A DNA stretch of 64,000 nucleotides. Origin: Paracoccaceae bacterium (lineage in GTDB: Bacteria > Pseudomonadota > Alphaproteobacteria > Rhodobacterales > Rhodobacteraceae). Positions 19,991-39,288 of this stretch are shown here, in pieces. Where the stretch lies: positions 7,059 through 71,058 of the forward strand of contig JAIXSA010000018.1 in the NCBI GenBank assembly GCA_027484915.1. The letters are read 5' to 3'. The notes under the pieces were generated by a model, which made no database searches, was not told the origin of the DNA, and was given only the letters and a program-made list of their open reading frames with translations. The position numbers were made by a program, and so were the translations under genes. The first letter of the stretch is position 1. Every line of letters begins with the position of its first letter.

Positions 19991-20015
19991 AACGCATTTG
20001 TCCAAGTCGGGATCC
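19991..20015 (-). promoter_or_regulatory. EcfG-type promoter (one mismatch) for the exonuclease-ligase operon
   Basis: Minus strand GGATC-N16-CGTT(GA). Confidence 0.5.
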
Positions 20016-20021
20016 GACCGG

Positions 20022-20046
20022 GGAACAATGGTGGCACAGCCGCGTT
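20022..20046 (+). promoter_or_regulatory. EcfG-type promoter
   Basis: GGAAC-N16-CGTT upstream of the 54-aa ORF at 20098. Confidence 0.75.
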
Positions 20047-20097
20047 GCAGGGTCATGGGTCCGGATGCCGGGCCGCAAACCGCAACGGAGAGCTGCA

Positions 20098-20262
20098 ATG
20101 GACGAACTTACCCTTGGTGCAGTCGTGTTCCTGATCCTGCTGGCCATCTCTCTGGTCGGCCTGTTCTGGTCCTCGCGCCAGGCCGACCGGCTGGATGGCG
20201 AGCGTCGCCAGCGCAGGACACTGGTGCGCGAGGATGGCACGGTGGTTGGAGCCCCGCTTTAG
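20098..20262 (+). CDS. Small single-TM protein (54 aa)
   Basis: MDELTLGAVVFLILLAISLVGLFWSSRQADR...; GGAGAG RBS and EcfG-type promoter. Confidence 0.65.
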   Translation: MDELTLGAVVFLILLAISLVGLFWSSRQADRLDGERRQRRTLVREDGTVVGAPL

Positions 20263-20424
20263 GCATCCAGCAACCCCAGCCGGAACCGTGGCGTTCCTGC
20301 CCGGCCCAACCGGCAAAGCGGCTGGTAACCGGGAGGAGGCTCTGGTTCCGGGTCGCCATGGTCGAAGGCGACCCTGCGGGGCGTCGGTGGCGGGTTGGTC
20401 TTGAACGGCCTTCATCTTGGGCAA

Positions 20425-21381
20425 TCAATCAAGGCGGGGAAGGACGCTGGTGCCAAAGGCGTCGATGAAGGCCTCTTGGTTCCGGCCGATGCAGTGAAGG
20501 TGGACTGTGGCTCCAAGTGCGGCCAGTGACGCGATGTCGGCGGTGTGGCGGCCAAGGTCTTCGGAGATCGGGATCCGGTCGGCCAGCGCTGCCTCGGAAG
20601 CGGCGTCCGAGGCGCTGTCAAAGTCGGCCGGTCGGCGCAGGTCCCACATCGCCTCGCCACCCAGGATTCCGTGGCGCCACTGGTGCATCGCCTCGGCCAT
20701 CGCGGTCGCCCGGTCGGGTGCCCAGGACAGCGCGTGCTGGATGTGGACCGGCTTGCCCTCGCCACCATTCTCGCGGAAGGCGCGCAGGACGGGGAGGACG
20801 GTCTCGACCTTCCCGCCGACAGTCAGAAGGCCGTCGGCCCAGGTGGCGACCTCGGCGGCGGTTTCCTTGCTGACGGCGGCGGCGTAAAGCGGCATCCGCT
20901 GCTTGGGACGCGAATAGAGCCGGGCGCTGATGACGGTAACCCGACCGCGGTGGGTGACTTCATCTCCGTCGAAGAGAGCCCGGATGATCGCGGCGCATTC
21001 GGCAAGACGCGCGTTGCGTTCGGCCTTCTCGGGCCAGGGCAAGCCTGTGATCGCCTCGTTGATCGCCTCGCCGCTGCCAAGGGCCAGCCAGAAGCGGCCC
21101 GGGAACATCTCGGCCAGTGTCGCGGCGGCCTGGGCAAGGACGGCGGGATGCATGCGATACCCCGCCGAGGCGATAGAGCCGAAGGGCAGGTCACAGGCGT
21201 GCATCGCGGCCCCGAGCCAGGCCCAGGAAAACCCGGACTGACCTTGCCGCACGCTCCACGGATGGAAATGGTCCGAGCATTTGATCGCCGTGAATCCGGC
21301 CTTTTGCGCACTGCGGCACAAGGACAAGAGACGGGACGGGGCGAACTGTTCGTGCGAGGCGTGAAAGCCGATCTGCGCCAC
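20425..21381 (-). CDS. LLM-class flavin-dependent oxidoreductase (TIGR03885-like)
   Basis: IGFHASHEQF, SDHFHPWS..QGQSGF.WAWLGAA, LGSGEAINE. Confidence 0.88.
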   Translation of the reverse strand: MAQIGFHASHEQFAPSRLLSLCRSAQKAGFTAIKCSDHFHPWSVRQGQSGFSWAWLGAAMHACDLPFGSIASAGYRMHPAVLAQAAATLAEMFPGRFWLALGSGEAINEAITGLPWPEKAERNARLAECAAIIRALFDGDEVTHRGRVTVISARLYSRPKQRMPLYAAAVSKETAAEVATWADGLLTVGGKVETVLPVLRAFRENGGEGKPVHIQHALSWAPDRATAMAEAMHQWRHGILGGEAMWDLRRPADFDSASDAASEAALADRIPISEDLGRHTADIASLAALGATVHLHCIGRNQEAFIDAFGTSVLPRLD

Positions 21382-21429
21382 GATCAGCGATGTCCTGTGA
21401 ACCGGGAAAGAGGCGAAGGCATGCCGCGA

Positions 21430-21654
21430 TCAGGCCCGGCGCCGGGATATGTCGGGCGTGTCGTTGTTCGCCGCGCGGTCGGGCGGGGTGGCAAAAGTTG
21501 ACTTGCCGATGTCCTGATCCGCGTCGTAGAAAAGCTCGGCCTCGGCTTGCTGCCAGTGGCGGTTGGCGCAGCCATCCGGGCAACCATCGGCCTGCCACAG
21601 GCTGTAGGCGCGTTCGCGGATGCGGTCTTCGGGGACGCTGGGTGTTCTCATCAT
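21430..21654 (-). CDS. DUF2934 domain protein
   Basis: EDRIRERAYSLWQADGCPDG.ANRHWQQAEAEL. Confidence 0.88.
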   Translation of the reverse strand: MMRTPSVPEDRIRERAYSLWQADGCPDGCANRHWQQAEAELFYDADQDIGKSTFATPPDRAANNDTPDISRRRA

Positions 21655-21691: not shown

Positions 21692-21716
21692 AACCGTGAG
21701 CACCGCAAAATGTTCC
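21692..21716 (-). promoter_or_regulatory. EcfG-type promoter
   Basis: Minus strand GGAAC-N16-GGTT upstream of DUF2934. Confidence 0.72.
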
Positions 21717-22977: not shown

Positions 22978-23002
22978 GGAACTACCCATGTGACTGCGGG
23001 TT
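22978..23002 (+). promoter_or_regulatory. EcfG-type promoter
   Basis: GGAAC-N16-GGTT upstream of ORF 23037. Confidence 0.7.
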
Positions 23003-23036: not shown

Positions 23037-23243
23037 ATGTCCGCCCCGCACACCAACCTGGAAACCCAGAAACGCCGGCATCGCGGACCCCTGATCGGCA
23101 TGGCGCTGGTGGCGATCTTCGGCGTTGCACTGATCGTCTACTGGCAATTCGAGGAAGCCGCCGAAGGCAACTCTCCCACGTCGGACACCGTCCAGCCCGA
23201 GACAGGCACCGAACCCGCCTCCGCCCCTGTGGCCGGGGACTAG
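23037..23243 (+). CDS. Small single-TM protein (68 aa)
   Basis: MSAPHTNLETQKRRHRGPLIGMALV..., acidic/Pro tail; GGAGA RBS, promoter, downstream hairpin. Confidence 0.75.
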   Translation: MSAPHTNLETQKRRHRGPLIGMALVAIFGVALIVYWQFEEAAEGNSPTSDTVQPETGTEPASAPVAGD

Positions 23244-23386: not shown

Positions 23387-23572
23387 TCAGCGCTGCTGAC
23401 CCTTCGACTGGTTGTTCTGATGCTGCTGGCCGCTGCCGGACTGGCCGCCCTGCTGGGTCTTGTTCTGGCCGTCCTTGGTGTCGGTCTGACCGCCCTGCTG
23501 GCCACCCTTCTGGCCCTGCTGGTCCTGTTGACCCTGCTGGCCCTTCTGCTGGTTCTTCTGGTCGTTCGCCAT
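23387..23572 (-). CDS. 61-aa Gln/Gly/Asn-rich hydrophilin-like protein
   Basis: MANDQKNQQKGQQGQQDQQGQKGGQQGGQ...; AGGAG RBS and own EcfG-type promoter. Confidence 0.75.
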   Translation of the reverse strand: MANDQKNQQKGQQGQQDQQGQKGGQQGGQTDTKDGQNKTQQGGQSGSGQQHQNNQSKGQQR

Positions 23573-23624
23573 CTGACATCTCCTGTTGCCGTGGGACCGC
23601 CCAACATGGCGGCTGCAGGGGATC

Positions 23625-23649
23625 AACCGGTGGCGGGACGAATTGTTCC
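23625..23649 (-). promoter_or_regulatory. EcfG-type promoter
   Basis: Minus strand GGAAC-N16-GGTT(GA). Confidence 0.75.
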
Positions 23650-23656
23650 GGCATCA

Positions 23657-23682
23657 GGAACCGCAGCGCTGCCCTGTCGGTT
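23657..23682 (+). promoter_or_regulatory. EcfG-type promoter of ku
   Basis: GGAAC-N17-GGTT(GA), back-to-back with the previous promoter. Confidence 0.75.
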
Positions 23683-23708: not shown

Positions 23709-24518
23709 TTGCCCCCGCGCACGTTCTGGAAGGGTTACCTGAAGCTGTCGCTCGTCACCTGCCCGGTCGCCCTGATGCCTGCCGTGACCGAAGGCGGGCG
23801 GCTGCGGTTCCATACGCTGAACCGCGCGACCGGCAATCGTGTGCAGCGCCAGTATGTCGATGCCGAGACCGGGAAGCCGGTCAAGGACGAGGATCAGGCG
23901 CGCGGCTATCCGCGGGGCGAGAATGACCACGTGATTCTGGAGGACGAGGAGCTGGACGAGGTCGCGCTGGACAGCACGCGGACCATCGACATCCAGGAGT
24001 TCGTGCCGTCGGACAAGATCGGCTGGATCTGGTTCGACCGCCCGCATTTCCTGGTGCCCGACGACACCGTGGCGGAAGAGGCGTTCTCGGTCATCCGGGA
24101 TGCGATGCGGTCCACTGGATCGGTGGGGATCGCCCGACTTGTGATGTACCGCCGCGAGAGGGCGGTGATGCTGATGCCGAAGGGAAAGGGGATCGTGCTG
24201 TGGACCCTGCGCTATGGTGACGAGGTGCGCGACGATGCGGACTACTTCGGTGACCTGCGCGGGGTGAAGCCGGACGGTGAGGCGCTGAAACTGGTCAGCC
24301 GGTTGATCGAGACCCGGATGACCGACTGGGACCCGAAGATGGTCGAAGACCCGGTGCAGGACCGCCTGCTGGAGTTGATCGAATCGAAGAAGACGGGCCG
24401 CAAACCCGCGCGGACGTCCAGGTCCGACGAACCGCGCGACAGCGGCAAGGTGGTCAGCATCATCGACGCGCTGAAGCGCAGCATTGCCTCCGAGAAGCCC
24501 GCCGCACGGAAGCGCTAG
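23709..24518 (+). CDS. ku: Non-homologous end-joining protein Ku (paralogue 1)
   Basis: FWKGYLKLSLVTCPV, FHTLNRATGNR, RRERAVML...GIVLWTLRYGDEVR; TTG start with GGAGG RBS. Confidence 0.95.
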   Translation: MPPRTFWKGYLKLSLVTCPVALMPAVTEGGRLRFHTLNRATGNRVQRQYVDAETGKPVKDEDQARGYPRGENDHVILEDEELDEVALDSTRTIDIQEFVPSDKIGWIWFDRPHFLVPDDTVAEEAFSVIRDAMRSTGSVGIARLVMYRRERAVMLMPKGKGIVLWTLRYGDEVRDDADYFGDLRGVKPDGEALKLVSRLIETRMTDWDPKMVEDPVQDRLLELIESKKTGRKPARTSRSDEPRDSGKVVSIIDALKRSIASEKPAARKR

Positions 24519-26962
24519 GGTCTTAGCGGACGGGCGGCCTCCGCAAACCCGGCCCAGGGGTCGGCGCGCAGGTTTGACAGCCGGGCGGGCATCGTCAGGA
24601 CGGTGAAGTCGCCTGGTGCAACGCCGGCCTTCAGCTCTTCCCACGTGACCGGAGCAGAGACATGTGCGCCGGGCCGAGCGCGGGTCGAGAAGGCCGCGAC
24701 GGCCGTCGCGCCGCGCTGGTTGCGCAAGTAGTCGACCAGGATCTTTCCCTGCCGCTTGGACTTGGTGATGGTGGACACGTAACGCGACGGGTCGTCCGAC
24801 GCCATCTCACGCGCGAAGTCGCGGCAGAAAGTCTTGACCGCGGGCCACTCTGCCTTGGGCATCAGGGGGGCCACCACGTGCAGCCCCTTCCCACCCGAGG
24901 TCTTGACGAAAGCCGCCAGCCCCTTGGCCTCTAACCGGACGCGTACATCCTGCGCGGCCTGGACCAGGTCGGCCCAGTCCACCCCGTCGCCGGGGTCAAG
25001 GTCGATGACGATCCGGTCGGGCTTTTCCCAGTCCTTCAGCGTGCTGCCCCAAGGGTGGATTTCCAGCGCCGCCGACTGCGCCAGCGCGATCAGCCCGTCG
25101 AGGTCGGCAATGGCAAGCGAGGGTTCGTCCTTCGGTTCTGCCGGGTCCTGGACCCGCAGGATCGCCGCGTTCATCCCCTTCCATTCGTGCTTCTGGAAGA
25201 ACTGCTGCCTCCCGCCCACCCCGTCCGGCAGGCGCAACAGGGCCAGCGGGCGGCCGACGATGTGGGGCGCGATCCAGGGCCAGACTTCGGTGTAGTAATC
25301 CGCAAGGCCCGCCTTGGTGACCCCGACGTCGGGCCAATAGACCCTCTCCGGGTGGCTCAGCTTGACCCTGCGGACCGGCGTGGGCGCAGGGTCAGGAAGC
25401 GGCGTCGGCAGGCCCTCGCCCGTCACTTCGCGCGGGTCCTTGTCCTCGCGCAGGCCCTTGAAGGATGCGTGGCGCAGGTTGCCGTCGCCCGTCCAGGCGC
25501 GGAAGTCGACCTCGGCCACCAGTTCGGGCCGCACGAAGCGCACACCGCGCGCCTCGGCCCGGGGAAGGGGCGGCTGGAAGGGCTGGGTGTCCGTCTCAAG
25601 GGCGGCCAGCTGTTCGTAAAGCTGCTCGGCCAGAGTGGCGGAGAACCCGGTTCCGACCCGCCCCACGGACTTGAGCGTGTCGCCGTCATATACCCCCAGC
25701 ACCAACGACCCGATGGCGCGGGCGGACACGGTCGAGGGCAGGTACCCCGCCACCACGAACTCTTGCCGGGCCGAACACTTGGACTTGACCCAGGCCTTGC
25801 CGCGACCGGGCAGATAGGGGCTGTCGCGCAGTTTCGAGATGATGCCCTCCAGCCCCAGTCGGCAGGCGTGGCGCAACACCAGCTCGCCCTTGTCTGACAG
25901 ATGCTCGCTGATCCGCAATGGACCTGAGGCGGGGGCAACCAGCCCCGCCAGCAGCCGTTTGCGGTCGACCAGCGGCAGGCCGGTCAGGTTGCGGCCATCC
26001 AGGTGCAGAAGGTCGAAGGCGTAGTAGACCATCCGGTCCGTCCGCCCCCCGGCGAGGTCAGCCTGCAGCGCCGAGAAGTCCGAGGACCGGCCCGCCGCTT
26101 CCACCACCACCTCGCCGTCCAGCACCGCCTGCCGCACCGGCAGTGCCGCCAGCGCACCGGCGATGGCCCCGCCGAAGCGGTCTGTCCAGTCGCGGCCCGA
26201 CCGGGTGAAAAGGCGAACCTTGCCGTCTGCGACCTGCGCCTGGATTCGGTAGCCGTCGAACTTGATCTCGTGCAGCCAGCGGTCGTCGCCGGGGGTGGAC
26301 TTGACGAGGGAGGCCAGCATGGGCGGGATGAAATCCGGCATTGTGGCGGTCGGCTCCTTGGCAGCCGCCTTCCGGGCCCTTGGCTTGCGGGCAGGCCTCC
26401 CGCCCACCTCGTCAATCGTCCGCCCTGATTTCACCGACTCCGGTCGTTCCTCCAGGATGTCCGGGGCGGTCTCGTCCCGCGCGCTGGAATCCTCGCCCTT
26501 GATCAGAAGCCAGTTCTCACGCTTCTCCCTGGGCTTGCCACGCATCCGGATCAGGTGCCAGCAGCCCGTCAGCTTTTCACCCTTCAGCTCGAACTCCAGA
26601 TGGCCCTTGGCATAGCCTTTGGCCGCGTCGAACACGGGGCGCCATGTCCCCCGGTCCCAGACGATCACCGTCCCCGCGCCATACTGGCCTTCGGGGATCG
26701 CGCCCTCGAAATCGCCATAGTCCATCGGGTGGTCCTCGACATGGACCGACAGGCGCTTTTCGCCGGGCACGAGGCTTGGTCCGCGCGTCACGGCCCAGCT
26801 TTTCAGCACCCCGTCCATCTCCAGCCGCAGGTCATAGTGCAGGCGGGTGGCGGCGTGCTTCTGGATGACGAAGACGGGTTCACCTTTTGACGCCTTCTTC
26901 CGCCCCTTCGGTTCGGGCGTGGCCTGGAAGTCGCGCATCGACTGGTAGGTTTCCAGAGCCAT
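24515..26962 (-). CDS. ligD: DNA ligase D (phosphoesterase-ligase-polymerase)
   Basis: PE domain FVIQKHAATRLHYDLRLE, ligase HEIKFDGYR and EGIISK, polymerase KTSGGKGLHV and DYLRN. Confidence 0.96.
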   Translation of the reverse strand: MALETYQSMRDFQATPEPKGRKKASKGEPVFVIQKHAATRLHYDLRLEMDGVLKSWAVTRGPSLVPGEKRLSVHVEDHPMDYGDFEGAIPEGQYGAGTVIVWDRGTWRPVFDAAKGYAKGHLEFELKGEKLTGCWHLIRMRGKPREKRENWLLIKGEDSSARDETAPDILEERPESVKSGRTIDEVGGRPARKPRARKAAAKEPTATMPDFIPPMLASLVKSTPGDDRWLHEIKFDGYRIQAQVADGKVRLFTRSGRDWTDRFGGAIAGALAALPVRQAVLDGEVVVEAAGRSSDFSALQADLAGGRTDRMVYYAFDLLHLDGRNLTGLPLVDRKRLLAGLVAPASGPLRISEHLSDKGELVLRHACRLGLEGIISKLRDSPYLPGRGKAWVKSKCSARQEFVVAGYLPSTVSARAIGSLVLGVYDGDTLKSVGRVGTGFSATLAEQLYEQLAALETDTQPFQPPLPRAEARGVRFVRPELVAEVDFRAWTGDGNLRHASFKGLREDKDPREVTGEGLPTPLPDPAPTPVRRVKLSHPERVYWPDVGVTKAGLADYYTEVWPWIAPHIVGRPLALLRLPDGVGGRQQFFQKHEWKGMNAAILRVQDPAEPKDEPSLAIADLDGLIALAQSAALEIHPWGSTLKDWEKPDRIVIDLDPGDGVDWADLVQAAQDVRVRLEAKGLAAFVKTSGGKGLHVVAPLMPKAEWPAVKTFCRDFAREMASDDPSRYVSTITKSKRQGKILVDYLRNQRGATAVAAFSTRARPGAHVSAPVTWEELKAGVAPGDFTVLTMPARLSNLRADPWAGFAEAARPLRP

Positions 26963-26963: not shown

Positions 26964-27800
26964 TCAGCCCGCCTTCCGCCGCGGGGTCTTGTCCTTGGTC
27001 GTCTTTCCGGGGGCTGTCCGCCCCTTCGCCGCCTTGGCGCTTTCGCGCAGCGCGGCCATCAGGTCCACCACCTTTGCCTGCGGGGCCTCTTTCCGGTGTG
27101 GCGGCGGGCGGCCGTCAAGCTTGGCCTTCACCAGATCGGCCAGCGCAGCCTCGTAGCGGTCGTCGAAGGCCGAAGGATCGAAGGTGCCCAGCTTGGTCTT
27201 GATGATGTGCTCGGCCAGCTCCAGCATCTCGCCCTCGATCTTCAGGTCGGGGATGTCGGCGAAGGCGCGGTCTGCCGAGCGGACTTCGTAGTCGAAGTTC
27301 AGCGTGTTGGCGATCAGTCCCGCCCCATGCGGCCGGATCATCACCGTGCGCAGGCGGCGGAACAGGACCGTCCGGGCCAGGGCAGCGACACCCTCGCGGG
27401 CCATCCCGTCGCGCAGCAGCGCATAGGCCTCGACCGAGGCGGCGTCGGACGGCCCAAGATAGTAGGGCCGGTCAAAGTAAAGCGTGTCGATGTCGCTGCA
27501 GGGGATGAACGCCTCGATGGGCAGCGTCTTGTCGGACGCGGGGATGGCCGCGACGATCTCGTCTTGCTCCAGAAGGACATAGTCGCCGGTATCCGCCTCG
27601 TAGCCCATGACCTCGGCGTCCTTTTCCACCGGCTTGCCGGTCACGGAATCGACAAGCTCGTTCTTCAAGCGGTGGCCGGTGCGGCGGTTGACCATGTGCA
27701 GGGCGACCCGGTCCGAGGTTGTGGCCGCCGTGTAAAGCGCCACTCCGATGCTGATCTCGCCCAGCCGGAGCCGGCCCTTCCAGTTCGCCCGCGGTGCCAT
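26964..27800 (-). CDS. ku: Non-homologous end-joining protein Ku (paralogue 2)
   Basis: MAPRANWKG, VALYTAA, YFDRPYYL, LFRRLRTVMIR..G.GLIANTLNFDYEVR. Confidence 0.95.
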   Translation of the reverse strand: MAPRANWKGRLRLGEISIGVALYTAATTSDRVALHMVNRRTGHRLKNELVDSVTGKPVEKDAEVMGYEADTGDYVLLEQDEIVAAIPASDKTLPIEAFIPCSDIDTLYFDRPYYLGPSDAASVEAYALLRDGMAREGVAALARTVLFRRLRTVMIRPHGAGLIANTLNFDYEVRSADRAFADIPDLKIEGEMLELAEHIIKTKLGTFDPSAFDDRYEAALADLVKAKLDGRPPPHRKEAPQAKVVDLMAALRESAKAAKGRTAPGKTTKDKTPRRKAG

Positions 27801-27845: not shown

Positions 27846-27871
27846 AACAGCGCCCGGCGGTGGATGGTTCC
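27846..27871 (-). promoter_or_regulatory. EcfG-type promoter of the ku-ligD operon
   Basis: Minus strand GGAAC-N17-TGTT. Confidence 0.72.
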
Positions 27872-27932: not shown

Positions 27933-27957
27933 GGAACCGCCCCTTGGCGCGGGAATT
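27933..27957 (+). promoter_or_regulatory. Possible EcfG-type autoregulatory promoter of the sigma gene
   Basis: GGAAC-N16-AATT (deviant -10). Confidence 0.4.
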
Positions 27958-27984: not shown

Positions 27985-28458
27985 ATGTCCGACGACGTGC
28001 TGAGCCACATCCCCGCACTGCGGCTGTTCGCGAGGTCCTTGACCGGGCGCTACGGCGATGCGGATGATCTGGTGCAGGATACCCTGGTGCGCGCCATCGC
28101 CAGCGCACAGTCCTACACTCCGGGAACCAACATGCGCGCCTGGCTGTTCACGATCATGCGCAACCGCTTCTACAACGACCGGGTCAAGCTGGCCCGCGAA
28201 CGCCCCGGCGCCGAGGACTGCATTTCGTCCGTGCCGACGAGCCCGGAAACCCAATACTGGCATGTTCGGGGGCGCGAGATCGAGGCCGCGCTGATGGGCC
28301 TGCCGCAGGCCTACCGCGAGGCGGTGATGCTCGTCCTTGTCACGGGCGAAAGCTACCAGTCGGCCGCCGAAATCCTTGGCTGCGACATCGGCACGATCAA
28401 GAGCCGGATCAACCGTGGCCGCAAGCTTCTGCAGACAGCGCTGGGCGAAGAGGTCTGA
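27985..28458 (+). CDS. ECF sigma factor, EcfG/SigT (ECF15-like) general stress type
   Basis: LRLFARSLTG..DADDLVQDT, PGTNMRAWLFTIMRN, LP..YREA, SY..AAEI.GC.IGTIKSRINR. Confidence 0.88.
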   Translation: MSDDVLSHIPALRLFARSLTGRYGDADDLVQDTLVRAIASAQSYTPGTNMRAWLFTIMRNRFYNDRVKLARERPGAEDCISSVPTSPETQYWHVRGREIEAALMGLPQAYREAVMLVLVTGESYQSAAEILGCDIGTIKSRINRGRKLLQTALGEEV

Positions 28459-28466: not shown

Positions 28467-28491
28467 GGAACTTTAGTCCTGCCGGGCGGTT
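28467..28491 (+). promoter_or_regulatory. EcfG-type promoter of yciF
   Basis: GGAAC-N16-GGTT(GA). Confidence 0.75.
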
Positions 28492-30297: not shown

Positions 30298-30322
30298 GGA
30301 ACAATCGGATGCCTTGGCTGTT
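30298..30322 (+). promoter_or_regulatory. EcfG-type promoter
   Basis: GGAAC-N16-TGTT(GA). Confidence 0.7.
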
Positions 30323-31096: not shown

Positions 31097-31123
31097 GGAA
31101 CGCGCCTTGCGGGAAAAGGTTCC
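31097..31123. promoter_or_regulatory. Bidirectional overlapping EcfG-type promoter
   Basis: GGAAC-N17-GTTCC: plus strand GGAAC-N16-GGTT towards mpg, minus strand GGAAC-N16-CGTT towards the 90-aa gene. Confidence 0.7.
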
Positions 31124-31194: not shown

Positions 31195-31740
31195 ATGCCG
31201 ATCCGCTTTGATCAGGACATTGTCGATCTGGCCCGCAGCTTGCCGGGTGCCCGACTTATGGTGCGCGGCGTCGGCGGCACCGTGGTCGAGACCGAGGCCT
31301 ATGGCCGGGACGATCCGGCGTCGCACAGTTACCGCGGGCCGACGGCGCGCAATGCGGCGATGTTCGGAGAGCCGGGCACGGTCTACGTCTACTTGTCCTA
31401 CGGCTGCCATCTGTGCCTGAACGTCGTCGGTCGACCGGGCGAGGCGGTGCTGATCCGGGCCCTGCTGCCAGAGGTCGGGATCGCAGAGATGATCGCCCGG
31501 CGCGGGACGGCGCGCGACATCGCCACGGGTCCGGGCAGGTTGGGTCAGGCTTTGGGTATTGCGCTGTCCGACAGTGGAAAACGCTTTGACGGCGGCGCCT
31601 TCCTGCTGGAGCCCGGACCGCAGGCGGATCTCCTGGTCGGGCCGCGCATCGGGATCACCAAGGCCGCGGACCGGCCCTGGCGCTTTGGCCTCGCCGGCGC
31701 GTCTGCGCTGAGCCGGCCCTTTCCGCGCCCGCCGGAGTAG
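31195..31740 (+). CDS. mpg: DNA-3-methyladenine glycosylase (AAG/MPG family)
   Basis: VETEAY...DPASHS, MFGEPG.VYVY.SYG.H.CLNVV, VLIRAL, GPGRL.QALGI, GPRIGITKA. Confidence 0.93.
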   Translation: MPIRFDQDIVDLARSLPGARLMVRGVGGTVVETEAYGRDDPASHSYRGPTARNAAMFGEPGTVYVYLSYGCHLCLNVVGRPGEAVLIRALLPEVGIAEMIARRGTARDIATGPGRLGQALGIALSDSGKRFDGGAFLLEPGPQADLLVGPRIGITKAADRPWRFGLAGASALSRPFPRPPE

Positions 31741-31749: not shown

Positions 31750-31824
31750 TCAGCGCAGTCCGAAGAAGGACAGGATCGCCACGACGACGACGATCAGGCC
31801 GACGAGGTAGATGATGTTGTTCAT
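31750..31824 (-). CDS. 24-aa single-TM microprotein (below the ORF-track cutoff)
   Basis: Manual translation MNNIIYLVGLIVVVVAILSFFGLR*; AAAGG RBS-like site and EcfG-type promoter. Confidence 0.75.
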   Translation of the reverse strand: MNNIIYLVGLIVVVVAILSFFGLR

Positions 31825-31857
31825 GGCGGTGCCTTTCACGGGTTCTGTTGCCGGACC

Positions 31858-31883
31858 AACGGGCGGAGGGGCGCTTCAGTTCC
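31858..31883 (-). promoter_or_regulatory. EcfG-type promoter of the 24-aa microprotein
   Basis: Minus strand GGAAC-N17-CGTT. Confidence 0.75.
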
Positions 31884-31902: not shown

Positions 31903-31927
31903 GGAACAAATCGGGCGCATCGGGATT
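31903..31927 (+). promoter_or_regulatory. EcfG-type promoter (deviant -10)
   Basis: GGAAC-N16-GATT(GA). Confidence 0.5.
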
Positions 31928-31951: not shown

Positions 31952-32122
31952 ATGCCCAACGAACCCGGCCCAGCCGCCGAAAAGCGGACCCCGCCCCGCG
32001 ACCGTCGCAATGCCCAGGGCGACCACGAAGGCTCTCCCCACCGGGCGGAGGAGTTTGTTCAGGCGAACCCGGCGCGTCAGGTGCCCGATTCCGTGTGCCC
32101 CGAACCCAAGACCAAGGCGTGA
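31952..32122 (+). CDS. Hypothetical 56-aa hydrophilic protein
   Basis: AAGGAGA RBS before ATG 31952; 3 nt upstream of DUF3008. Confidence 0.5.
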   Translation: MPNEPGPAAEKRTPPRDRRNAQGDHEGSPHRAEEFVQANPARQVPDSVCPEPKTKA

Positions 32123-32125
32123 TCC

Positions 32126-32311
32126 ATGCCCGCGAAATCGAAAGCGCAGTAGAAGGCGGCAGGCGCGGCTTTGGCGGCCAAGCGCGGCGAGGTGGACCAG
32201 GGTGAGCTTTACGGTGCGTCGAAGGACATGGCGAAATCCATGACCGAGAACGAGCTGGAAGAGCTTGCAACCACCCGGCGCAAGGGACTGCCCGAGAAGA
32301 AGAAGGACTAG
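32126..32311 (+). pseudogene. DUF3008 family protein with in-frame TAG at codon 9
   Basis: MPAKSKAQ*KAAGAALAAKRGE...GASKDM..SM.E.ELEELA.T.RKGLPE; the family has QQ here (CAG>TAG at 32150). Confidence 0.82.
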
Positions 32312-32537
32312 CTGTCGGGGGGTGTCAGGTTCATTGCCGCGACGCTCATTCCGAGGGTGCCGAACAACAGCGCCGCCTGCGCGAAGAAAAGCGCGTGAGG
32401 CCCGTCTCGTTGCCGCTGGTCGACAGTAGCCTTTGCAGTTGCCCGATGTCAGCCCACAGGATCGCAAGCCCGACGGCACGGCCAAGCACGGCCCCGTTGG
32501 CAAACTGCGACAGCATGAAACGGATCAGGCGTGGCAT
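32308..32537 (-). pseudogene. Small membrane protein gene with 1-nt frameshift
   Basis: MPRLIRFMLSQFANGAVLG..VGLAILWADIG.L..LLSTSG..., then FFAQAALLFGTLGMSVAAMNLTPPDS* in a shifted frame; break near 32387-32395. Confidence 0.65.
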
Positions 32538-32583
32538 CGTACCCTCCTTCCCGCGCAAAACCGTGGGGGGCGACATTGTTCCG

Positions 32584-32608
32584 GGAACAACGCGCGGCCG
32601 GACCGGTT
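32584..32608 (+). promoter_or_regulatory. EcfG-type promoter
   Basis: GGAAC-N16-GGTT upstream of the PRC-barrel gene. Confidence 0.72.
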
Positions 32609-32658: not shown

Positions 32659-32955
32659 ATGGACCACGCCACGCATACGCGGCTAACGCCCGCCGAGCTG
32701 ACCGAATCGAACCTGGTCGGGGCCACGATCTATGGCGCCGATGACGAAAAGGTCGGCACGATCTCGCACCTGCATCACGACGGCTCCACCGCTCAGGCGG
32801 TGGTCGATGTCGGGAGCTTCCTGGGCATCGGCGCCAAGCCCGTGCTGGTTAGCCTGGGCGAGCTGAACATGATGCGCGACCATACCGGCTCGATCCACGG
32901 GATGACCTCGTGGACCAAGGAGCAGCTGAAGAACTTCCCCGAACACCGGCACTGA
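32659..32955 (+). CDS. PRC-barrel domain protein
   Basis: L.GATIYGADDEKVGTI, VVDVGSFLGIGAKPV, WTKEQLK..PEH; AAGGAG RBS. Confidence 0.9.
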   Translation: MDHATHTRLTPAELTESNLVGATIYGADDEKVGTISHLHHDGSTAQAVVDVGSFLGIGAKPVLVSLGELNMMRDHTGSIHGMTSWTKEQLKNFPEHRH

Positions 32956-33011: not shown

Positions 33012-33036
33012 GGAACCGGTTGCCCCGCCGCGCGTT
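33012..33036 (+). promoter_or_regulatory. EcfG-type promoter
   Basis: GGAAC-N16-CGTT. Confidence 0.75.
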
Positions 33037-33081
33037 TTCCGTGGCCTGTTGTCACGACCGCGGCACGAAAGGGAGACTGCC

Positions 33082-33270
33082 ATGCCAAACCTGCACTTCG
33101 GCCGCCCCGAGAGCCCCGATCTGCCCCCTGCCGAACCCGATCTGCCCGTTCCGGGAGATCCGGTTCAGCCGGATGTCTATCCGGATCCCATGCCCGACCC
33201 CCAGCCGATCCCGCCCCAGGACCCGCAGCAGACCCCGCCGGGCGAGATCACGCCCCCGATACATGGGTGA
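33082..33270 (+). CDS. 62-aa Pro/Asp/Gln-rich protein
   Basis: MPNLHFGRPESPDLPPAEPDLPVPGDP...; GGGAGA RBS and perfect promoter. Confidence 0.6.
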   Translation: MPNLHFGRPESPDLPPAEPDLPVPGDPVQPDVYPDPMPDPQPIPPQDPQQTPPGEITPPIHG

Positions 33271-33294: not shown

Positions 33295-33465
33295 TCAGTC
33301 CTTGGCGGCGGTCTTGCGCGCGCCCGTCAGGGTGCGGTCCAGTTCCTGGGCAAGCTGGATGATGACATCGGGCACGGGTTCGGCCTTCGCATCCTCAAAC
33401 AGCCGGGCGGCCGCCGCGGACAGCGTCTTGTCCTTCTTGGACTCGGGTCCTGAATCCTGCGGCAT
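33295..33465 (-). CDS. nepR: NepR-like anti-sigma factor (56 aa)
   Basis: RLFEDAKAEPVPDVIIQLAQEL matches the NepR core (LY..v..EPVPDRF..LL..L); CAGGAA RBS. Confidence 0.65.
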   Translation of the reverse strand: MPQDSGPESKKDKTLSAAAARLFEDAKAEPVPDVIIQLAQELDRTLTGARKTAAKD

Positions 33466-33816
33466 TTCCTGTCTCCGACTGTCCCTGGTGCAGTGTATCG
33501 CAGGGCGGCGGCCAACACGACGACCAAATTTGGTCATTTCCGTGAAAGCGCGGCCCCAGAAGTTGTGTCCTGCCAACCTGCGCATTAAAGGTAGGGCGGT
33601 GCGGGAGTGCTTCCAGAGCGGAATCGCGTGGCGGCGGAAATGCGGCGGCCAGGGCGTGGTGACGGCGAAATCTGCAGGGCACTGGCCAATCGGCTGAGTT
33701 TCCGCAACACTTGTGCTGCGTATTCACCAGTACATTGACCGTTCGCGATGGGCACGTCTGCCCAAGGCCCTTGGGCCGACAGCAGGCATGTCGCTACCCA
33801 TTCAAGGAGACGGACC

Positions 33817-34392
33817 ATGCGACACAATCTGAATGGCAAGCGTGTGCTGGTCGTCGAGGACAACTACCTGCTGGCCCTGGACCTGGTGGACGAGCTTGAG
33901 GCGGCGAATGCCGTGGTGGTGGGGCCCTGCAACACGCTGAGCGATGCAAGCCTGCAAGTGGCGCACAGCGATCTGGCGGTGCTGGACGTGAACCTGAGCG
34001 GCGAGACGACGTTTCCGCTGGCTGACCGTCTGCAGGCGCTGGACGTGCCCTATGTCTTCTTCACGGGCTATGAAAAGGACGTGTTGCCGGTGCGCTTTGC
34101 CGGGGTCGACTGCATCACCAAGCCGCAGTCGCCCGCCATTGTCGTCGAGCTTTTGGACCTGCGCTCGCGCGAGGTGGGCAGCGACAGCATCCTGGAGCTA
34201 ATCCCGATTTTGCGCGCGCGTGCCCGTGGTTTTCTGGGTGATCCGCAGGCGGCGGACCGGCTTGTCGAACTTGCGCTGCAATGCGCGATCGACGATCCGG
34301 GGCCGATGCCCTCGGGCGCGCGGGTGGCCCCCTGGCTGATCCGTCTGATGGACGAGATCATGGCAGCGGGTCCAGGACACCTGCTGAACTAG
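33817..34392 (+). CDS. Response regulator: FATGUY-type receiver fused to C-terminal ECF sigma2-like domain
   Basis: VLVVEDN, AVLDVNL (D57), FFTGY, TKP; residues 123-178 align ungapped to region 2 of the 27985 sigma factor (20/56 identities, counted by hand). Confidence 0.85.
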   Translation: MRHNLNGKRVLVVEDNYLLALDLVDELEAANAVVVGPCNTLSDASLQVAHSDLAVLDVNLSGETTFPLADRLQALDVPYVFFTGYEKDVLPVRFAGVDCITKPQSPAIVVELLDLRSREVGSDSILELIPILRARARGFLGDPQAADRLVELALQCAIDDPGPMPSGARVAPWLIRLMDEIMAAGPGHLLN

Positions 34393-34404: not shown

Positions 34405-34431
34405 GGAACAAAGCCCCCGGCCGCCGGTTCC
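34405..34431. promoter_or_regulatory. Bidirectional overlapping EcfG-type promoter
   Basis: GGAAC-N17-GTTCC: plus strand GGAAC-N16-GGTT, minus strand GGAAC-N16-TGTT. Confidence 0.68.
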
Positions 34432-34515: not shown

Positions 34516-35115
34516 ATGAAACATCTATTTCTTGCCGTGCCCGCTGTGGCGCTGTTCGCCGCCGGGGCCTTTGCCCAGACCGATACCACCACTGGGGCGA
34601 CCACCGGCACCGACGCCGGTGCTACCGTGGATGCCACCGTTGACACCACGACGGGCGCCACCACCGGCACCAGCGCGGATGGGTCCGTGACCTTTGGGAC
34701 CAACTGGCCCTTGTCGGTCGGCACCACCTTCTTCATGGACGCCGACAGCGGCACGCTGCGCACCTCGGACGAGATCGGCAGCGGATGGCAGTCCCTGAGC
34801 CAGGAAGACCGCGACATGATCAAGGCGGACTGCCTGACCTTCATGGCGGCGCATGGTGATGCAGCGCCCACGACGGGGGCCGATGCTTCGACCGGGACCT
34901 CGACCGACACGACGGCCGGGGCGTCGACTGACGCTGGCGCTGCGACCGACACGGCGACCACCGGGACTGCGACGGATACCACGGCCGATGCCGCGACCAG
35001 CACCGATACGGCGACCGGAACCGGCACCGCATCGACCGAGGGAACCATCGCGACGGCCGTGGGTTATGACATGACCGAGATGAAGGCTATCTGCGAAGCA
35101 GTTCAGGGCCTCTGA
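34516..35115 (+). CDS. Secreted Thr/Ala/Asp/Gly-rich protein
   Basis: Signal peptide MKHLFLAVPAVALFAAGAFA; two T-rich tracts flank a folded core with two Cys; GAAAGGA RBS. Confidence 0.8.
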   Translation: MKHLFLAVPAVALFAAGAFAQTDTTTGATTGTDAGATVDATVDTTTGATTGTSADGSVTFGTNWPLSVGTTFFMDADSGTLRTSDEIGSGWQSLSQEDRDMIKADCLTFMAAHGDAAPTTGADASTGTSTDTTAGASTDAGAATDTATTGTATDTTADAATSTDTATGTGTASTEGTIATAVGYDMTEMKAICEAVQGL

Positions 35116-35309: not shown

Positions 35310-35335
35310 GGAACATTCGGGCGTGCGCGCCGGTT
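35310..35335 (+). promoter_or_regulatory. EcfG-type promoter
   Basis: GGAAC-N17-GGTT(GA). Confidence 0.75.
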
Positions 35336-35406: not shown

Positions 35407-36000
35407 ATGGCACAGAAATACGCAGACGACGACTATGATCGCGGCGGTCAGGGTGGGCGCAGCCGCTCGTCCGCAGGCCGCGGTGGCTATGACGACGACA
35501 TGGAGCGCGGCTATGGCGGCCGTCGTGGCGGGTCCTCGTCCTCGCGCGGGTCGTCCGCATCCTCCCGCGATGAGGATGAGGATTACGGCAGCTACGGCGG
35601 TTCGCGCAGCGACTGGTCCGAAAGCAGCGGCCGGGGCTATGGGTCGCAAGGACGCGGCGGTCAGGGCTATGGCAGCGAAGGCGGCTATGGCCAGGGCTAC
35701 GGCCAAGGCGGTTATGGCCAGGGCGGCTACGGCCAGGGTGGCTCGCAGGGGACGGGCGGTCAGGCCGGATCGGGCCACGACCCGCACTACCACACCTGGC
35801 GCGAGCGCCAGATGCAGGCCCACGACGAGGACTACAAGGCCTTCAACGAAGAGCGCCAGAAGAAGTTCGAATCCGAGTTCGAGGAATGGCGCAAGAACCG
35901 CAAGTCGGGCTCGGGTTCGGGCGCGCAAGGCGGGTCGGGGTCCAGCATGAGCGGCAGCTCGGGCTCGGAAAGCGGCGGATCGTCCTCCAAGAAGAACTGA
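35407..36000 (+). CDS. Gly/Ser/Tyr-rich low-complexity stress protein with a short helical domain
   Basis: GQGGY repeats plus HDPHYHTWRERQ...DEDY...ERQKKFESEFEEWRK; GGAGAG RBS. Confidence 0.8.
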   Translation: MAQKYADDDYDRGGQGGRSRSSAGRGGYDDDMERGYGGRRGGSSSSRGSSASSRDEDEDYGSYGGSRSDWSESSGRGYGSQGRGGQGYGSEGGYGQGYGQGGYGQGGYGQGGSQGTGGQAGSGHDPHYHTWRERQMQAHDEDYKAFNEERQKKFESEFEEWRKNRKSGSGSGAQGGSGSSMSGSSGSESGGSSSKKN

Positions 36001-36075: not shown

Positions 36076-36100
36076 GGAACATTCGCCACCCTCTCCGGTT
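36076..36100 (+). promoter_or_regulatory. EcfG-type promoter
   Basis: GGAAC-N16-GGTT. Confidence 0.75.
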
Positions 36101-36153
36101 CAATGGGAAGCGGGTGGCGACAGCCGCCGCACCATCAGCAACGGAGAGCATCG

Positions 36154-36978
36154 ATGGACAGGAACTCGAATGACCGCGAGCGTGACGAGTATGGCCGTTT
36201 CAGCAGTGATGATGACCGGGGTGGCAGCTCGTCGCGTGGCGGCGGCCGGTCTTCCTGGCGCTATGACGACGACGACCGCCGCAGCTCGGCCAGCGACCGT
36301 GGCAGCGAGGACCGCGAACGGGACCGTTATGGCCGGTTCACAAGCGACGATGATGACCGGGGCGGACGCTCGTCCTCGGGGCGTTCGTCGGGTGGCCGCA
36401 GCAGCGCCAGCGATGACCGCGAACGCGACCGCAACGGCCGGTTCATGAGCGACGATGACGACCGCCGTTCCTCGTCTGGCCGTGGCCGGTCCTCGTCGCG
36501 CGATGACGACGATGACCGTCGCAGCGGCAGCGGGCGTGGCGGTAGTGACGACCGCGAACGGGATCGTTTCGGTCGGTTCATGAGCGATGATGATGACCGC
36601 CGTTCCTCGTCTGGCCGTGGCCGGTCCTCGTCGCGCGATGATGACGACGACCGCGAGCGGGATCGTTTCGGCCGGTTCATGAGCGATGACGACGACCGCC
36701 GGTCGGGTCGGTCTTCCGGTGGCGGCGACGGTCGCGGCTGGTTCGGCGATTCGCGGGGCCATGCCGAGGCGGCGCGCCGGGGCTGGGAAAACCGCGACGA
36801 CGATGATCGTGGCGGGCGGTCGTCCGGTGGGCGGTCCTCCTCCCGTGACGATGACGACGACCGTCGCGGCGGTTCACGCGCATCTTCGCGCGGGGGCGAT
36901 GACCGCAGCCAGGGTGGCTGGTTCGGGGATTCCGAAGGCCATGCCGAAGCCGCGCGCCGCGGTTGGCGCAACCGCTAA
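36154..36978 (+). CDS. Arg/Asp/Ser-rich repeat hydrophilin
   Basis: Five RERDxxGRFxSDDD units and two [17 protein letters not shown] units; GGAGAG RBS. Confidence 0.8.
36439..36653 (+). repeat. Intragenic direct repeat, 80 nt x2 at a 135-nt period
   Basis: 36439-36518 vs 36574-36653 differ at 4 positions, all GAC/GAT synonymous; a partial further copy lies at 36661-36700. Confidence 0.85.
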
Positions 36979-37054
36979 GCGCAACAAGGGGCTGGCCCCG
37001 GCAATTCACGCTGCCGGGGCCAGTCGCCATTTACGCCCGCAATCCCAGGAGCCC

Positions 37055-39157
37055 ATGATGAAGTCGTCCGAAACGCAGTTGCAGAACAGCACCGACGGCG
37101 GTCCCGCCGAAGTCCATCAGACCGTCGAAACCGGTGCCGAGGCGCTGACTACCTCGCAGGGGGTGACGATCTCGGACAACCAGAACAGCCTGACGGCCGG
37201 CGTGCGGGGTCCGACGCTGCTGGAGGACTTTGTCCTGCGTGACAAGATCTTCCACTTCGACCACGAGCGCATCCCGGAGCGCGTGGTCCATGCGCGGGGG
37301 TTCGGGGCGCATGGCACCTTCGAATGCACCCGCGACCTGTCGGACATCACTCGAGCGGCACCGTTCCAAGAGGTGGGCAAGCTGACCGAGACCTTCGTGC
37401 GCTTCTCGACCGTGGCGGGGAACAAGGGGTCCTTCGACCTTGCGCGCGACGTGCGCGGCTTTGCGGTGAAGTTCTACACCGATGAAGGGAACTGGGATCT
37501 GGTCGGCAACAACATCCCGGTGTTCTTCATCCAGGACGCGATGAAGTTCCCCGACCTTGTCCATGCCGTGAAGGACGAGCCGGACCGCGGCTTTCCCCAG
37601 GCGCAATCGGCGCATGACAATTTCTGGGACTATATCTCGCTGACGCCGGAATCGATGCATATGGTGATGTGGCAGATGTCCGACCGCACGATCCCCCGGT
37701 CTTTCCGCACGATGGAGGGCTTCGGGGTCCACACCTTCCGGCTGATCAACGCCGAGGGCGCGTCGACCTTCGTCAAGTTCCACTGGAAGCCGCGGCAGGG
37801 TCTGCAGTCGGTCCTGTGGGACGAGGCAGTGAAGATCAACGGCGCGGACCCCGACCACCACCGCCGCGACCTGTGGGAGGCGCTGACCACGGGTGACCAT
37901 CCGCAATGGGACCTGTGCCTGCAGATGTTCGACCAGGACTTCGCCGACAGCTTCGACTTCGACATCCTGGACCCGACGAAGATCATCCCCGAAGAGCTGA
38001 TCCCGCCGGAACCGGTGGGCACGCTGACGCTGGACCGCGCCGTGGACAACTTCTTCGAGTTCACCGAGCAGGTCGCCTTCTGCACCCAGCACGTGATTCC
38101 GGGCATCGATTTCACCGAGGACCCGCTATTGCAGGGGCGGAACTTTTCCTACCTCGACACGCAGCTCAAGCGGCTGGGCAGTCCGAACTTCAGCCAGCTT
38201 GAGGTCAACCGCCCACGCGGCTGTCCGATGCACAACTTCCAGCAGGACGGGCAGATGCGGAAGGGCAACCGCCGGGGCCGGGTGAACTATGAGCCGAACG
38301 GGTTCGAGGAAGGCCCGCGCGAAGACCCGCTGAAGGGCTATGTCAGCTATGCCGCTCCGGTTGAGGGGGCCAAGGTCCGGATCCGTGCGGAGAGTTTCGC
38401 CGATCACTACAGCCAGGCCCGGCAGTTCTACATCAGCCAGACCGCGGTGGAGCAGGAGCATATCCGCTCGGCGCTGGCTTTCGAGCTGGGCCGGTGCGAG
38501 CAGGCACGGGTCCGGCGTGCCATCGTCGGCCATCTGCGCAACATCGATGAGGATCTGGCACAGGGTTTGGCAGATGGCTTGGGGATGCCCGAACTGCCGC
38601 CCCCCGCAACGGCGGCCCGGCCGACTCGGCAGGACCTGCCAGCCTCGGACGCGCTAAGCATCCTGAAGAATGGCCCCGAAACCTTTGCCGGTCGGGTGCT
38701 GGGCGTGCTGATCGCCGACGGCTTTGACGGCACGCTTCTGGACCGGCTGACCGGCGCGGTGACCGAGGCGGGGGGCAAGGTAAAGCTGATCGCCCCGCGC
38801 ATCTATGGCGCGCGGGACGACCGGGGCGACTTGTGCGAGGCACAGTTTTCGGTCGCGGGCGGGCCGTCGGTCCTGTTCGATGCGGTGGCGGTGCTGATCG
38901 GCCCTGAAGGCGAGGCAGCGCTGGCCGCGATGCCCCAGGCGCAGACCTTCCTGCGCGACGCCTTTGCGCATGGAAAGTTCATCGGCCATGCGATGGCTGA
39001 GAAGCTGTTCGAGGCGGCGGGGCTGCAGGGCAAAGCCGACGACGGCTGCTTCGACCTGGGCCTGGTAGATGATGGCGAGACGGTCGACGCTTTCGTCAGC
39101 CGCTGCGCCAGGCTGCGGCACTGGTCGCGGGACGGATTGGCAAAGGCCGCTCCATAG
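37055..39157 (+). CDS. katE: Large-subunit catalase HPII with C-terminal DJ-1-like domain
   Basis: [48 protein letters not shown]. Confidence 0.96.
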
Positions 39158-39182
39158 GCCTGAAGCCTCGCCAGGATGAACC

Positions 39183-39208
39183 AAGGGGCCCGCGGGACGG
39201 GCCCCTTT
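39183..39208 (+). terminator. Intrinsic terminator after katE
   Basis: AAGGGGCCCG-N5-CGGGCCCCTTT. Confidence 0.7.
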
Positions 39209-39263
39209 GCTTTGGGCCTGTGGTGCAGATATGGCACATCCCGCGCGCGGTTCGCCCCTGGCT

Positions 39264-39288
39264 GGAACACCGCCCCGTCCCACAGGTT
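39264..39288 (+). promoter_or_regulatory. EcfG-type promoter
   Basis: GGAAC-N16-GGTT. Confidence 0.7.

Follow-up and report, generated by a model that had tools for sequence, protein, structure and literature searches.

The PhyR-NepR-σEcfG pathway, described for EcfG of Sphingomonas melonis, SigT of Caulobacter, RpoE2 of Sinorhizobium and EcfG1 of Rhizobium etli (extracytoplasmic function (ECF) sigma factor group ECF15), is the closest counterpart of a gene cluster at approximately 17.4-42 kb of a 64-kb stretch of Paracoccaceae DNA (the window; GenBank assembly GCA_027484915.1, contig JAIXSA010000018.1, positions 7,059 to 71,058 of the forward strand). Both use the same promoter, GGAAC-N16/17-(C/G)GTT, at no more than about 100 nt from the start codon, and have in common an EcfG-like sigma factor, a NepR-like protein, a HWE kinase and divergent promoter pairs, as well as targets encoding Ku, LigD, catalase, PRC-barrel, DUF892 and small hypothetical proteins. 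In the described systems, however, the promoters are scattered over the chromosome, whereas here about 21 are found in about 20 kb, a density of approximately one per kb. Furthermore, the sigma factor gene does not adjoin nepR, the window lacks a canonical PhyR and instead contains, beside the nepR-like gene, a gene for a receiver/sigma-2 protein of reversed domain order, and GTT is most often preceded by G rather than by C. As a type, these promoters are nothing out of the ordinary for the alphaproteobacterial EcfG general stress response; their density is unusual.

Lone sigma factor genes with an EcfG-type promoter of their own, as found here, are also characteristic of the non-canonical EcfG paralogs (Caulobacter SigU, R. 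etli EcfG2, Sphingopyxis granuli EcfG2 and those of Methylobacterium). In contrast to these, the sigma factor gene of the cluster is embedded in the apparent bulk of its regulon and linked to genes for a NepR-like and a receiver protein of its own. A nearly identical promoter consensus, GGAA(C/T)-N16-18-GTT, belongs to actinobacterial SigH, SigE and SigR, which are the next-best structural relatives of this sigma factor. These are from another phylum, however, and are associated with a ZAS-type anti-sigma factor and a thiol/oxidative regulon, whereas the cluster is without such an anti-sigma factor.

The sigma factor of the cluster is 88-98% identical to those of four Tabrizicola metagenome-assembled genomes (MAGs; Paracoccaceae, Rhodobacterales). 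We consider it probable that the region represents, on the chromosome of a Tabrizicola species, a gene cluster for the general stress response, equipped with EcfG-type promoters for which this sigma factor is the likeliest reader.

Enrichment and arrangement of the promoter motif

The strict motif GGAAC-N16/17-BGTT was matched 23 times in the window, compared to a mean of 2.17 in 100 dinucleotide shuffles (shuffle maximum 8), and 21 of the 23 matches lay between 20.0 and 39.3 kb. Scanning spacers of 10 to 25 nt between 19.9 and 39.4 kb gave 15 matches for N16, 6 for N17 and 0-2 for each other spacer, while outside the cluster N16 and N17 yielded 2 and 1 matches, respectively. Enrichment in the cluster is confined to spacers of 16 and 17 nt. 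A position weight matrix (PWM) built from 17 gene-facing sites gave 18 matches scoring 15 bits or more, of which 16 were in the cluster, compared to 0.55 in shuffles. The motif is clearly not equally frequent in background sequence.

The original prediction, made from the sequence alone, had listed 18 strict and three variant sites, most of them placed within about 110 nt upstream of a gene on the matching strand, and had taken them to define the regulon. All of these sites are present on the strands assigned to them, and the three variants have the predicted form; what the list lacked were three low-scoring strict matches that are intragenic or without a downstream gene (20272-, 28123+ and 35041+) and one likely promoter (32582-). 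The match at 28123+ is located inside the sigma factor gene, in a stretch encoding the conserved GTNMRAWLF. Since GC is high throughout the sequence (66-69%), the choice of genes was guided by GC at third codon positions, by Shine-Dalgarno sequences and by homology. A gene on the same strand is faced by 21 sites, 17 strict and four variant ones; measured from the final T of the -10 box, its start codon follows after 23-86 nt and is preceded by a Shine-Dalgarno sequence. The motif had not been noticed upstream of genes outside the cluster; two strict matches do occur there, 57089-57114 (-) and 60327-60351 (+), a number that corresponds to the chance rate. The former precedes a FabK-like or nitronate monooxygenase-like gene (56074-57066) by 22 nt. 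The latter is 120 nt upstream of a GST-like gene, yet within the preceding open reading frame (ORF). The sites define a regulon for this 64-kb window only.

Divergent promoter pairs with -35 boxes 1-7 nt apart were found at 20011-20026, 23645-23661 and 32578-32588, and two palindromes of the form GGAAC-N15-GGTTCC, at 31097-31123 and 34405-34431, read as the motif on both strands. The first allows a promoter reading in both directions with a gene on each side, so that divergent genes are both served. At the second, the minus-strand copy (34431-) was rejected as a promoter; it is a palindromic by-product of 34405+, and its -35 box is kept in two of four genomes. Taken by themselves, these palindromes would fit a transcription factor site (GGAAC...GTTCC) rather than a promoter. 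The chance that the motif as a whole represents such a site, a dispersed repeat or a composition artefact is negligible, as most sites are non-palindromic, with G or C and then A instead of CC after GTT, as their orientation always agrees with that of the downstream gene, and as the spacing requirement is sharp and 23 matches compare to 2.2 in shuffles. Moreover, as described below, only the two boxes and not the intervening sequence are conserved, and RNA contigs start just downstream.

A further candidate, GGCAC-N16-GGTT at 21733+ before a FAA-hydrolase-like gene, is weak and was excluded from the promoter count because relatives do not share its -35 box. Hairpins in the 5’ untranslated regions were discarded as a feature, their folding energies being no better than those of shuffles (z mostly -1 to +1). 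An Rfam scan of 17-43 kb gave no match; therefore, no known small RNA is behind the orphan sites.

Conservation and transcripts of the cluster

Three other Tabrizicola genomes (L001-L003) carry the same cluster in the same gene order. Since the DNA identity among the genomes is only 74-87%, the region is well suited to footprinting. When 19 promoter regions of the four genomes (window and L001-L003) were aligned, invariant columns made up 96% of GGAAC and 95% of GTT, compared to 33% of the spacer, 34% of the 25 nt upstream and 42% of the 25 nt downstream. The three variant promoters (20015-, 27933+ and 31903+) are kept as variants across the genomes, and the tiny ORFs of the cluster are conserved at the protein level in relatives. 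In L001-L003, approximately 1.6-2 kb of additional sequence (L001 797-2477, L002 181-2245, L003 718-2396) separate the 54-aa ORF from the LLM oxidoreductase gene; this insert is absent from the window, where its counterpart is 20372-20437.

A recently acquired mobile genomic island with its own sigma factor and regulon might present a similar picture. Homologs of the sigma factor and of the receiver/sigma-2 protein do reside on large plasmids of Paracoccus, Ensifer and Mesorhizobium (L018 among the sigma loci), and the gene content near the sigma homolog is reshuffled between genera. Nevertheless, the GC content of 66-69% is the same as in the flanks, a tRNA scan of the window found none, integrase or transposase genes were not seen among those examined in 16-43 kb, and the cluster is syntenic across four species-level Tabrizicola genomes, which implies that it is old in the genus. 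Taken together, this favors a regulon cluster and makes recent mobility improbable.

No RNA runs from this organism were found, the locus occurring in DNA metagenomes only. Transcripts were therefore taken from two freshwater metatranscriptomes (X23, X31) as assembled contigs of a related population, 90-96% identical to genes of the cluster. Seven contigs have a true upstream end 6-33 nt past a -10 box, and none spans a promoter. Contig ends were located at 28509 (18 nt past the -10 box end at 28491, DUF892 promoter), at ~31127 (6-8 nt past the plus-strand box end at 31121, methylpurine DNA glycosylase promoter), at ~31839 on the minus strand (box end 31858, the contig covering the 24-aa ORF), at 32630 (box end 32608, PRC-barrel promoter), at ~33066-33069 (box end 33036, promoter of the 62-aa ORF) and at 34450 (box end 34429, promoter of the secreted 199-aa protein). 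For the promoter of the 61-aa ORF (box end 23625), RNA contigs end on the minus strand at 23601 and 23586, 24-39 nt away. The 24-aa, 61-aa and 62-aa ORFs are located on transcripts, which together with the protein conservation upholds the earlier claim that the tiny ORFs are real genes. As to the promoters, the contig ends are supportive and are not a map of transcription starts. At 34599-34660, in the Thr/Gly/Ala repeat region of the secreted 199-aa protein, a contig of the related population skips 60 nt, indicating repeat-number variation between populations.

At the 17 clean gene-facing sites the base before GTT is G in 11, C in four and T in two cases, a bias from which a shifted -10 preference had previously been proposed. 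Counted by this base, N16/17 motifs amounted to G44, C9, T7 and A4 in Tabrizicola loci, to G37, T26 and C16 in Paracoccus and other loci and to C104, G49 and T9 in Caulobacterales-like loci, with a flat distribution for control spacers; these counts are not phylogenetically independent across loci. Orthologous sites in four genomes vary at this base (20022: C, C, C, G; 21716: G, A, A, G; 31883: C, C, A, G), which leaves GTT as the constrained core and means that the preference for G, a real lineage-level trend, is soft. The published consensus already is GGAAC-N16-17-C/GGTT (PMC11580852). In S. melonis, GGAAC-N17-20-GTT is accompanied by GGTT, AATT and CATT sites (PMC6599016), and 14 different -10 boxes have been described in S. 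granuli, where GGTT, TGTT and CATT promoters are transcribed in vitro by EcfG1 and EcfG2 (PMC7083833). The predominance of G in Tabrizicola stands, but it is within known variation and indicates no new specificity.

The sigma factor and its candidate regulators

The product of the sigma factor gene, which is situated between Ku and DUF892 genes, matched PhyR_sigma2 as the top Pfam family in addition to Sigma70_r2 and r4_2, while every NCBIfam equivalog score was under its cut-off. Its best PDB match was the sigma factor of 5UXX (E 1.9e-32, 115 bits), which we take to be the Bartonella quintana EcfG-NepR complex. Next-best were SigH and SigE of Mycobacterium tuberculosis (1e-19 to 1e-23, 86 bits), which use a similar promoter consensus. 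The motif might accordingly be that of another ECF group (SigH/SigR/SigE, GGAA(C/T)-N17-GTT) and the cluster a thiol/oxidative stress regulon under a zinc-binding anti-sigma factor. We regard this as very improbable: the 5UXX sigma factor is ahead by about 30 bits and PhyR_sigma2 is the top Pfam match, no ZAS-type anti-sigma gene was seen beside the sigma factor gene but a NepR-like ORF is present instead, and a HWE kinase, an alphaproteobacterial host and targets matching EcfG regulons complete the picture. By sequence comparison, the sigma factor groups with EcfG rather than with other ECF groups.

The sigma factor gene follows a weak copy of the motif, a conserved GGAAC-N16-(A/C)ATT 27 nt upstream of the ATG. 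Boxes of the AATT type are known in S. melonis (PMC6599016) and those of the CATT type in S. melonis and S. granuli (PMC6599016, PMC7083833). Ku, PRC-barrel and catalase genes belong to the experimentally defined S. melonis EcfG regulon, with GGTT and AATT boxes (PMC6599016).

The putative anti-sigma factor is encoded by a 56-aa ORF 4.8 kb from the sigma factor gene, which shows the NepR core pattern (...RLFEDAKAEPVPDVIIQLAQELD) and is kept in L001-L004. As a single sequence it found no match in Pfam, NCBIfam or the PDB; a profile of five Tabrizicola copies ranked Caulobacter NepR (3T0Y_B) first among 177,635 PDB sequences, at an E value of 0.27. With a local hidden Markov model, NepR-like small ORFs were detected beside the sigma homolog in about 35 of the loci examined. 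At the end of the cluster, the gene at 40219-42012 encodes a HWE kinase with HWE_HK and dCache domains. Between the NepR-like and the receiver/sigma-2 genes, a perfect 14-bp palindrome (GACCAAATTTGGTC, 33522-33535) is kept in three of four Tabrizicola genomes and may be an operator for some regulator.

Divergent from the NepR-like gene is the gene of a 191-aa protein with an N-terminal FATGUY-type receiver (Pfam Response_reg), closest to SdrG and Sma0114. Its C-terminal ~70 residues scored 24.6 bits with Pfam PhyR_sigma2, just under the cut-off, and hhalign aligned residues 122-188 with residues 2-68 of the sigma factor of the cluster (probability 96%, E 1.7e-9). Its score with the NCBIfam PhyR model NF006623 was 43.8 bits, from the receiver part only, compared to a cut-off of 240. 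An AlphaFold model (pLDDT 84) shows the receiver followed by a helical C-terminal domain; a Foldseek search with the AF2 model returned receiver-domain matches only and left the C-terminal helices unmatched. Proteins of this type form a tight group of 186-200 aa in which the phospho-acceptor Asp57 and the motif AADRLVE are invariant. They are distributed among Paracoccaceae and Rhizobiales, often on large plasmids (Paracoccus, Ensifer, Mesorhizobium), and are annotated only as “response regulator” or “hypothetical”.

The gene is located at most 10 kb from the sigma homolog in 10 of 80 sigma loci. Three arrangements place it directly beside a NepR-like gene, one in Tabrizicola, one in Rhodobacter sp. 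L015 and one on a Paracoccus liaowanqingii plasmid. In Rhodobacter sp. L015, it is followed by an opposite-strand NepR-like gene and then the sigma factor gene, each with its own GGAAC-N16/17-GTT promoter, while on the P. liaowanqingii plasmid it and the NepR-like gene stand in tandem, preceded by the genes of a HWE kinase and a single-domain receiver. The copies of Actibacterium and Halovulum have an EcfG-type promoter of their own and are oriented divergently to a CheB-CheR-PAS-HWE kinase gene. No description of a receiver-then-sigma-2 architecture was found in the literature searched. In this family, as in PhyR, a FATGUY-type receiver is joined to a degenerate EcfG sigma-2 domain, and its genes are linked to those for NepR-like proteins, EcfG-like sigma factors and HWE kinases. 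PhyR, however, has its sigma-like part at the N-terminus and its receiver at the C-terminus, whereas the 191-aa protein has the reversed order, lacks a sigma-4-like half and is ~80 residues shorter. The most economical reading is that it may be a permuted, half-size PhyR analog. It is possible, and we propose this only tentatively, that the cluster is a self-contained stress cassette in which this permuted mini-PhyR replaces or supplements PhyR as a phosphorylation-controlled decoy for the NepR-like protein.

Alternatively, the EcfG-type promoters could be served chiefly by a canonical EcfG whose gene lies together with nepR and phyR at another place in the genome, and the sigma factor of the cluster would be a secondary paralog of the SigU/EcfG2 type that only amplifies or tunes the response. 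Its gene is not beside nepR and has a weak variant promoter (AATT or CATT), and its product is only 43-47% identical to the sigma factors encoded directly behind nepR in Mycoplana (L047) and Yoonia (L072), the latter with a canonical phyR divergent at the locus. The closest relatives out of the order (Phenylobacterium) have a SigU-like layout, in which the promoter immediately precedes the sigma factor gene without a nepR in between. EcfG copies of the non-canonical type are frequent (PMC3892343), and Rhodobacter sphaeroides has a canonical phyR-nepR-ecfG locus (PMC5830050). On the other hand, a NepR-like gene, a receiver protein and a HWE kinase of its own suggest that the cluster is a self-contained module, and the sigma homolog is linked to promoter clusters in other genera (14, 11 and 10 sites in L007, L013 and L014). 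A weaker argument is that no second EcfG-like match from the four Tabrizicola assemblies was among the best 80 sigma relatives listed. On balance, a reader encoded elsewhere appears rather unlikely.

Several observations weigh against assigning the cluster to a general stress response driven by its own sigma factor. The NepR assignment relies on a short motif, with no Pfam match and a PDB match of E 0.27 only. Unlike canonical phyR/nepR-ecfG loci, which are autoregulated, the nepR-like and receiver genes are ~5 kb from the sigma factor gene and have no recognizable EcfG promoter. The 64-kb window contains no canonical PhyR, so that the locus does not constitute the canonical three-gene module, and a query for PhyR in Tabrizicola with the Yoonia protein matched only the query itself. 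The transcript contig ends stem from assembled contigs of a related population and are not base-resolution 5’-ends. Finally, GGAAC...GTT is shared with the actinobacterial SigH, SigE and SigR groups, and the motif alone is therefore no proof of EcfG class. It is the combination of sigma factor, NepR-like protein, HWE kinase, alphaproteobacterial host and target genes that places the system in the EcfG family. The identification of the sites as EcfG-type promoters, already contained in the original prediction, is supported by spacer specificity, gene orientation, footprints, the 5UXX-like sigma factor, the NepR-like ORF, the HWE kinase, the stress targets and the contig ends.

The proposed mechanism would comprise about 21 short transcription units, each preceded by a -35 box GGAAC, a 16-17 nt spacer and a -10 box nGTT (G > C > T) and transcribed by RNA polymerase with an EcfG-family sigma factor, most likely the 27985-28458 product. 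The weaker copy of the same promoter before the sigma factor gene suggests positive self-feedback. The sigma factor would probably be kept inactive by the NepR-like protein and be freed once a phosphorylated receiver protein, for which the 191-aa protein is a candidate, sequesters the latter; the signal would come from HWE-type kinases such as the one encoded in the cluster. The predicted output is joint induction of non-homologous end joining (two Ku genes, LigD), a ligase-exonuclease repair pair and methylpurine DNA glycosylase, and of catalase HPII, DUF892, SDR and PRC-barrel proteins, hydrophilins and many tiny membrane or secreted proteins.

Gene content, recurrence and significance

The promoters and genes of the cluster are compiled in Table 1. 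The exonuclease and ligase were named according to TIGR04122 and TIGR04120, both over cut-off. The promoter at 39264..39288 is beyond the span covered by L001-L003 and is without a footprint.

Table 1. Promoters, target genes and regulatory genes of the cluster in window coordinates, with relatives of the receiver/sigma-2 protein in the coordinates of their loci.
Feature	Position	Strand	Downstream genes or remarks
Variant promoter GGATC-N16-CGTT	19991..20015	-	Ligase-associated DNA damage response exonuclease 18952-19950, ATP-dependent DNA ligase 17384-18958; entire element including spacer kept in L001-L003
Promoter GGAAC-N16-CGTT	20022..20046	+	54-aa membrane ORF 20098-20262, 65-87% identical in L001-L003
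Promoter GGAAC-N16-GGTT	21692..21716	-	DUF2934 21430-21654, TIGR03885 LLM oxidoreductase 20425-21381
Promoter GGAAC-N16-GGTT	22978..23002	+	68-aa ORF 23037-23243, 86% identical in relatives
Promoter GGAAC-N16-GGTT, top PWM score	23625..23649	-	61-aa Gln/Gly-rich ORF 23387-23572
Promoter GGAAC-N17-GGTT	23657..23682	+	Ku 23709-24518
Promoter GGAAC-N17-TGTT	27846..27871	-	Second Ku 26964-27800, LigD 24515-26962
Variant promoter GGAAC-N16-AATT (relatives CATT)	27933..27957	+	Before sigma factor gene; -35 box and ATTAACC kept in four genomes
EcfG-like ECF sigma factor, 157 aa, ATG at 27985	27985..28458	+	Pfam and PDB matches
Promoter GGAAC-N16-GGTT	28467..28491	+	DUF892 28534-29031, possibly also YghA-like SDR 29337-30194
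Promoter GGAAC-N16-TGTT	30298..30322	+	117-aa ORF 30362-30715; TGTT kept in all four genomes
Bidirectional palindrome GGAAC-N15-GGTTCC	31097..31123	both	Plus: methylpurine DNA glycosylase 31195-31740; minus: 90-aa ORF 30803-31075
Promoter GGAAC-N17-CGTT	31858..31883	-	24-aa hydrophobic ORF 31751-31825
Variant promoter GGAAC-N16-GATT	31903..31927	+	56-aa ORF 31953-32123, DUF3008 32127-32311
Promoter GGAAC-N15-GGTT (N17 in L001-L003)	32559..32582	-	Small membrane ORF, start 32535; absent from the original prediction
Promoter GGAAC-N16-GGTT	32584..32608	+	PRC-barrel protein 32659-32955
Promoter GGAAC-N16-CGTT	33012..33036	+	62-aa Pro-rich ORF 33082-33270
NepR-like small ORF, 56 aa, putative anti-sigma factor	33295..33465	-	Motif AEPVPDxIIxLAxELD
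191-aa FATGUY-type receiver with C-terminal sigma-2-like domain, candidate permuted mini-PhyR (anti-anti-sigma)	33817..34392	+	
Promoter GGAAC-N16-GGTT(CC)	34405..34431	+ reading	Secreted 199-aa repeat protein 34516-35115
Promoter GGAAC-N17-GGTT	35310..35335	+	197-aa hydrophilic Gly/Ser/Asp/Arg-rich protein 35407-36000
Promoter GGAAC-N16-GGTT	36076..36100	+	274-aa repeat hydrophilin 36154-36978, probably also catalase HPII 37055-39157 (true start 37055)
Promoter GGAAC-N16-GGTT	39264..39288	+	DUF481 outer-membrane-like protein 39357-40184
dCache-HWE histidine kinase, candidate sensor for the module	40219..42012	-	Pfam HWE_HK and dCache_1; NCBIfam PhyK match weak
Receiver/sigma-2 relatives	L015 9073-9648; L085 6992-7570; L083 8001-8585; L084 8001-8561		

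Some of the target genes deviate from their relatives. Codon 9 of the DUF3008 gene (32151-32153) is TAG here and CAG or CAA in four related genomes, a nonsense mutation whose base is the same in four independent metagenome assemblies. The small membrane ORF on the minus strand (32346-32582) is frameshifted by the loss of 1 nt near 32388, and its promoter has a spacer of 15 nt compared to 17 nt in relatives; independent assemblies confirm both the deletion and the spacer, and judged by its sequence this gene looks to be decaying in this genome. The 36154-36978 and 35407-36000 proteins are highly charged, rich in Gly, Ser, Asp and Arg and without a Pfam match, and the former contains five to six tandem repeats of ERDR(F/Y)GRF(M/T)SDDDDR. 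Both are probably desiccation-type hydrophilins.

Dense promoter clusters were also found around the sigma homolog in Pannonibacter (L007, 14 matches in 20 kb), a Chelativorans MAG (L013, 11) and Carideicomes (L014, 10), compared to ~0.7 expected. These loci contain some of the same gene families (DUF892, SDR, DUF3008, PRC) in shuffled order. It thus seems that targets are repeatedly clustered around members of this sigma subfamily, which may perhaps be general.

To our knowledge, the EcfG pathway has hardly been studied in Rhodobacterales, and in Rhodobacter sphaeroides only a minor role of this pathway has been reported. The cluster represents a nearly complete general-stress regulon, readable from the sequence, for an uncultured freshwater lineage of this order. 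By virtue of its promoter density, the four-genome footprints and the many supported tiny ORFs, it also provides a compact test bed for the grammar of ECF promoters, including the N-GTT box, bidirectional palindromic promoters and back-to-back -35 boxes, as well as for small stress proteins and for stress control of non-homologous end joining. If the receiver/sigma-2 protein indeed acts as a decoy, sigma-factor mimicry would have evolved or been remodelled more than once.

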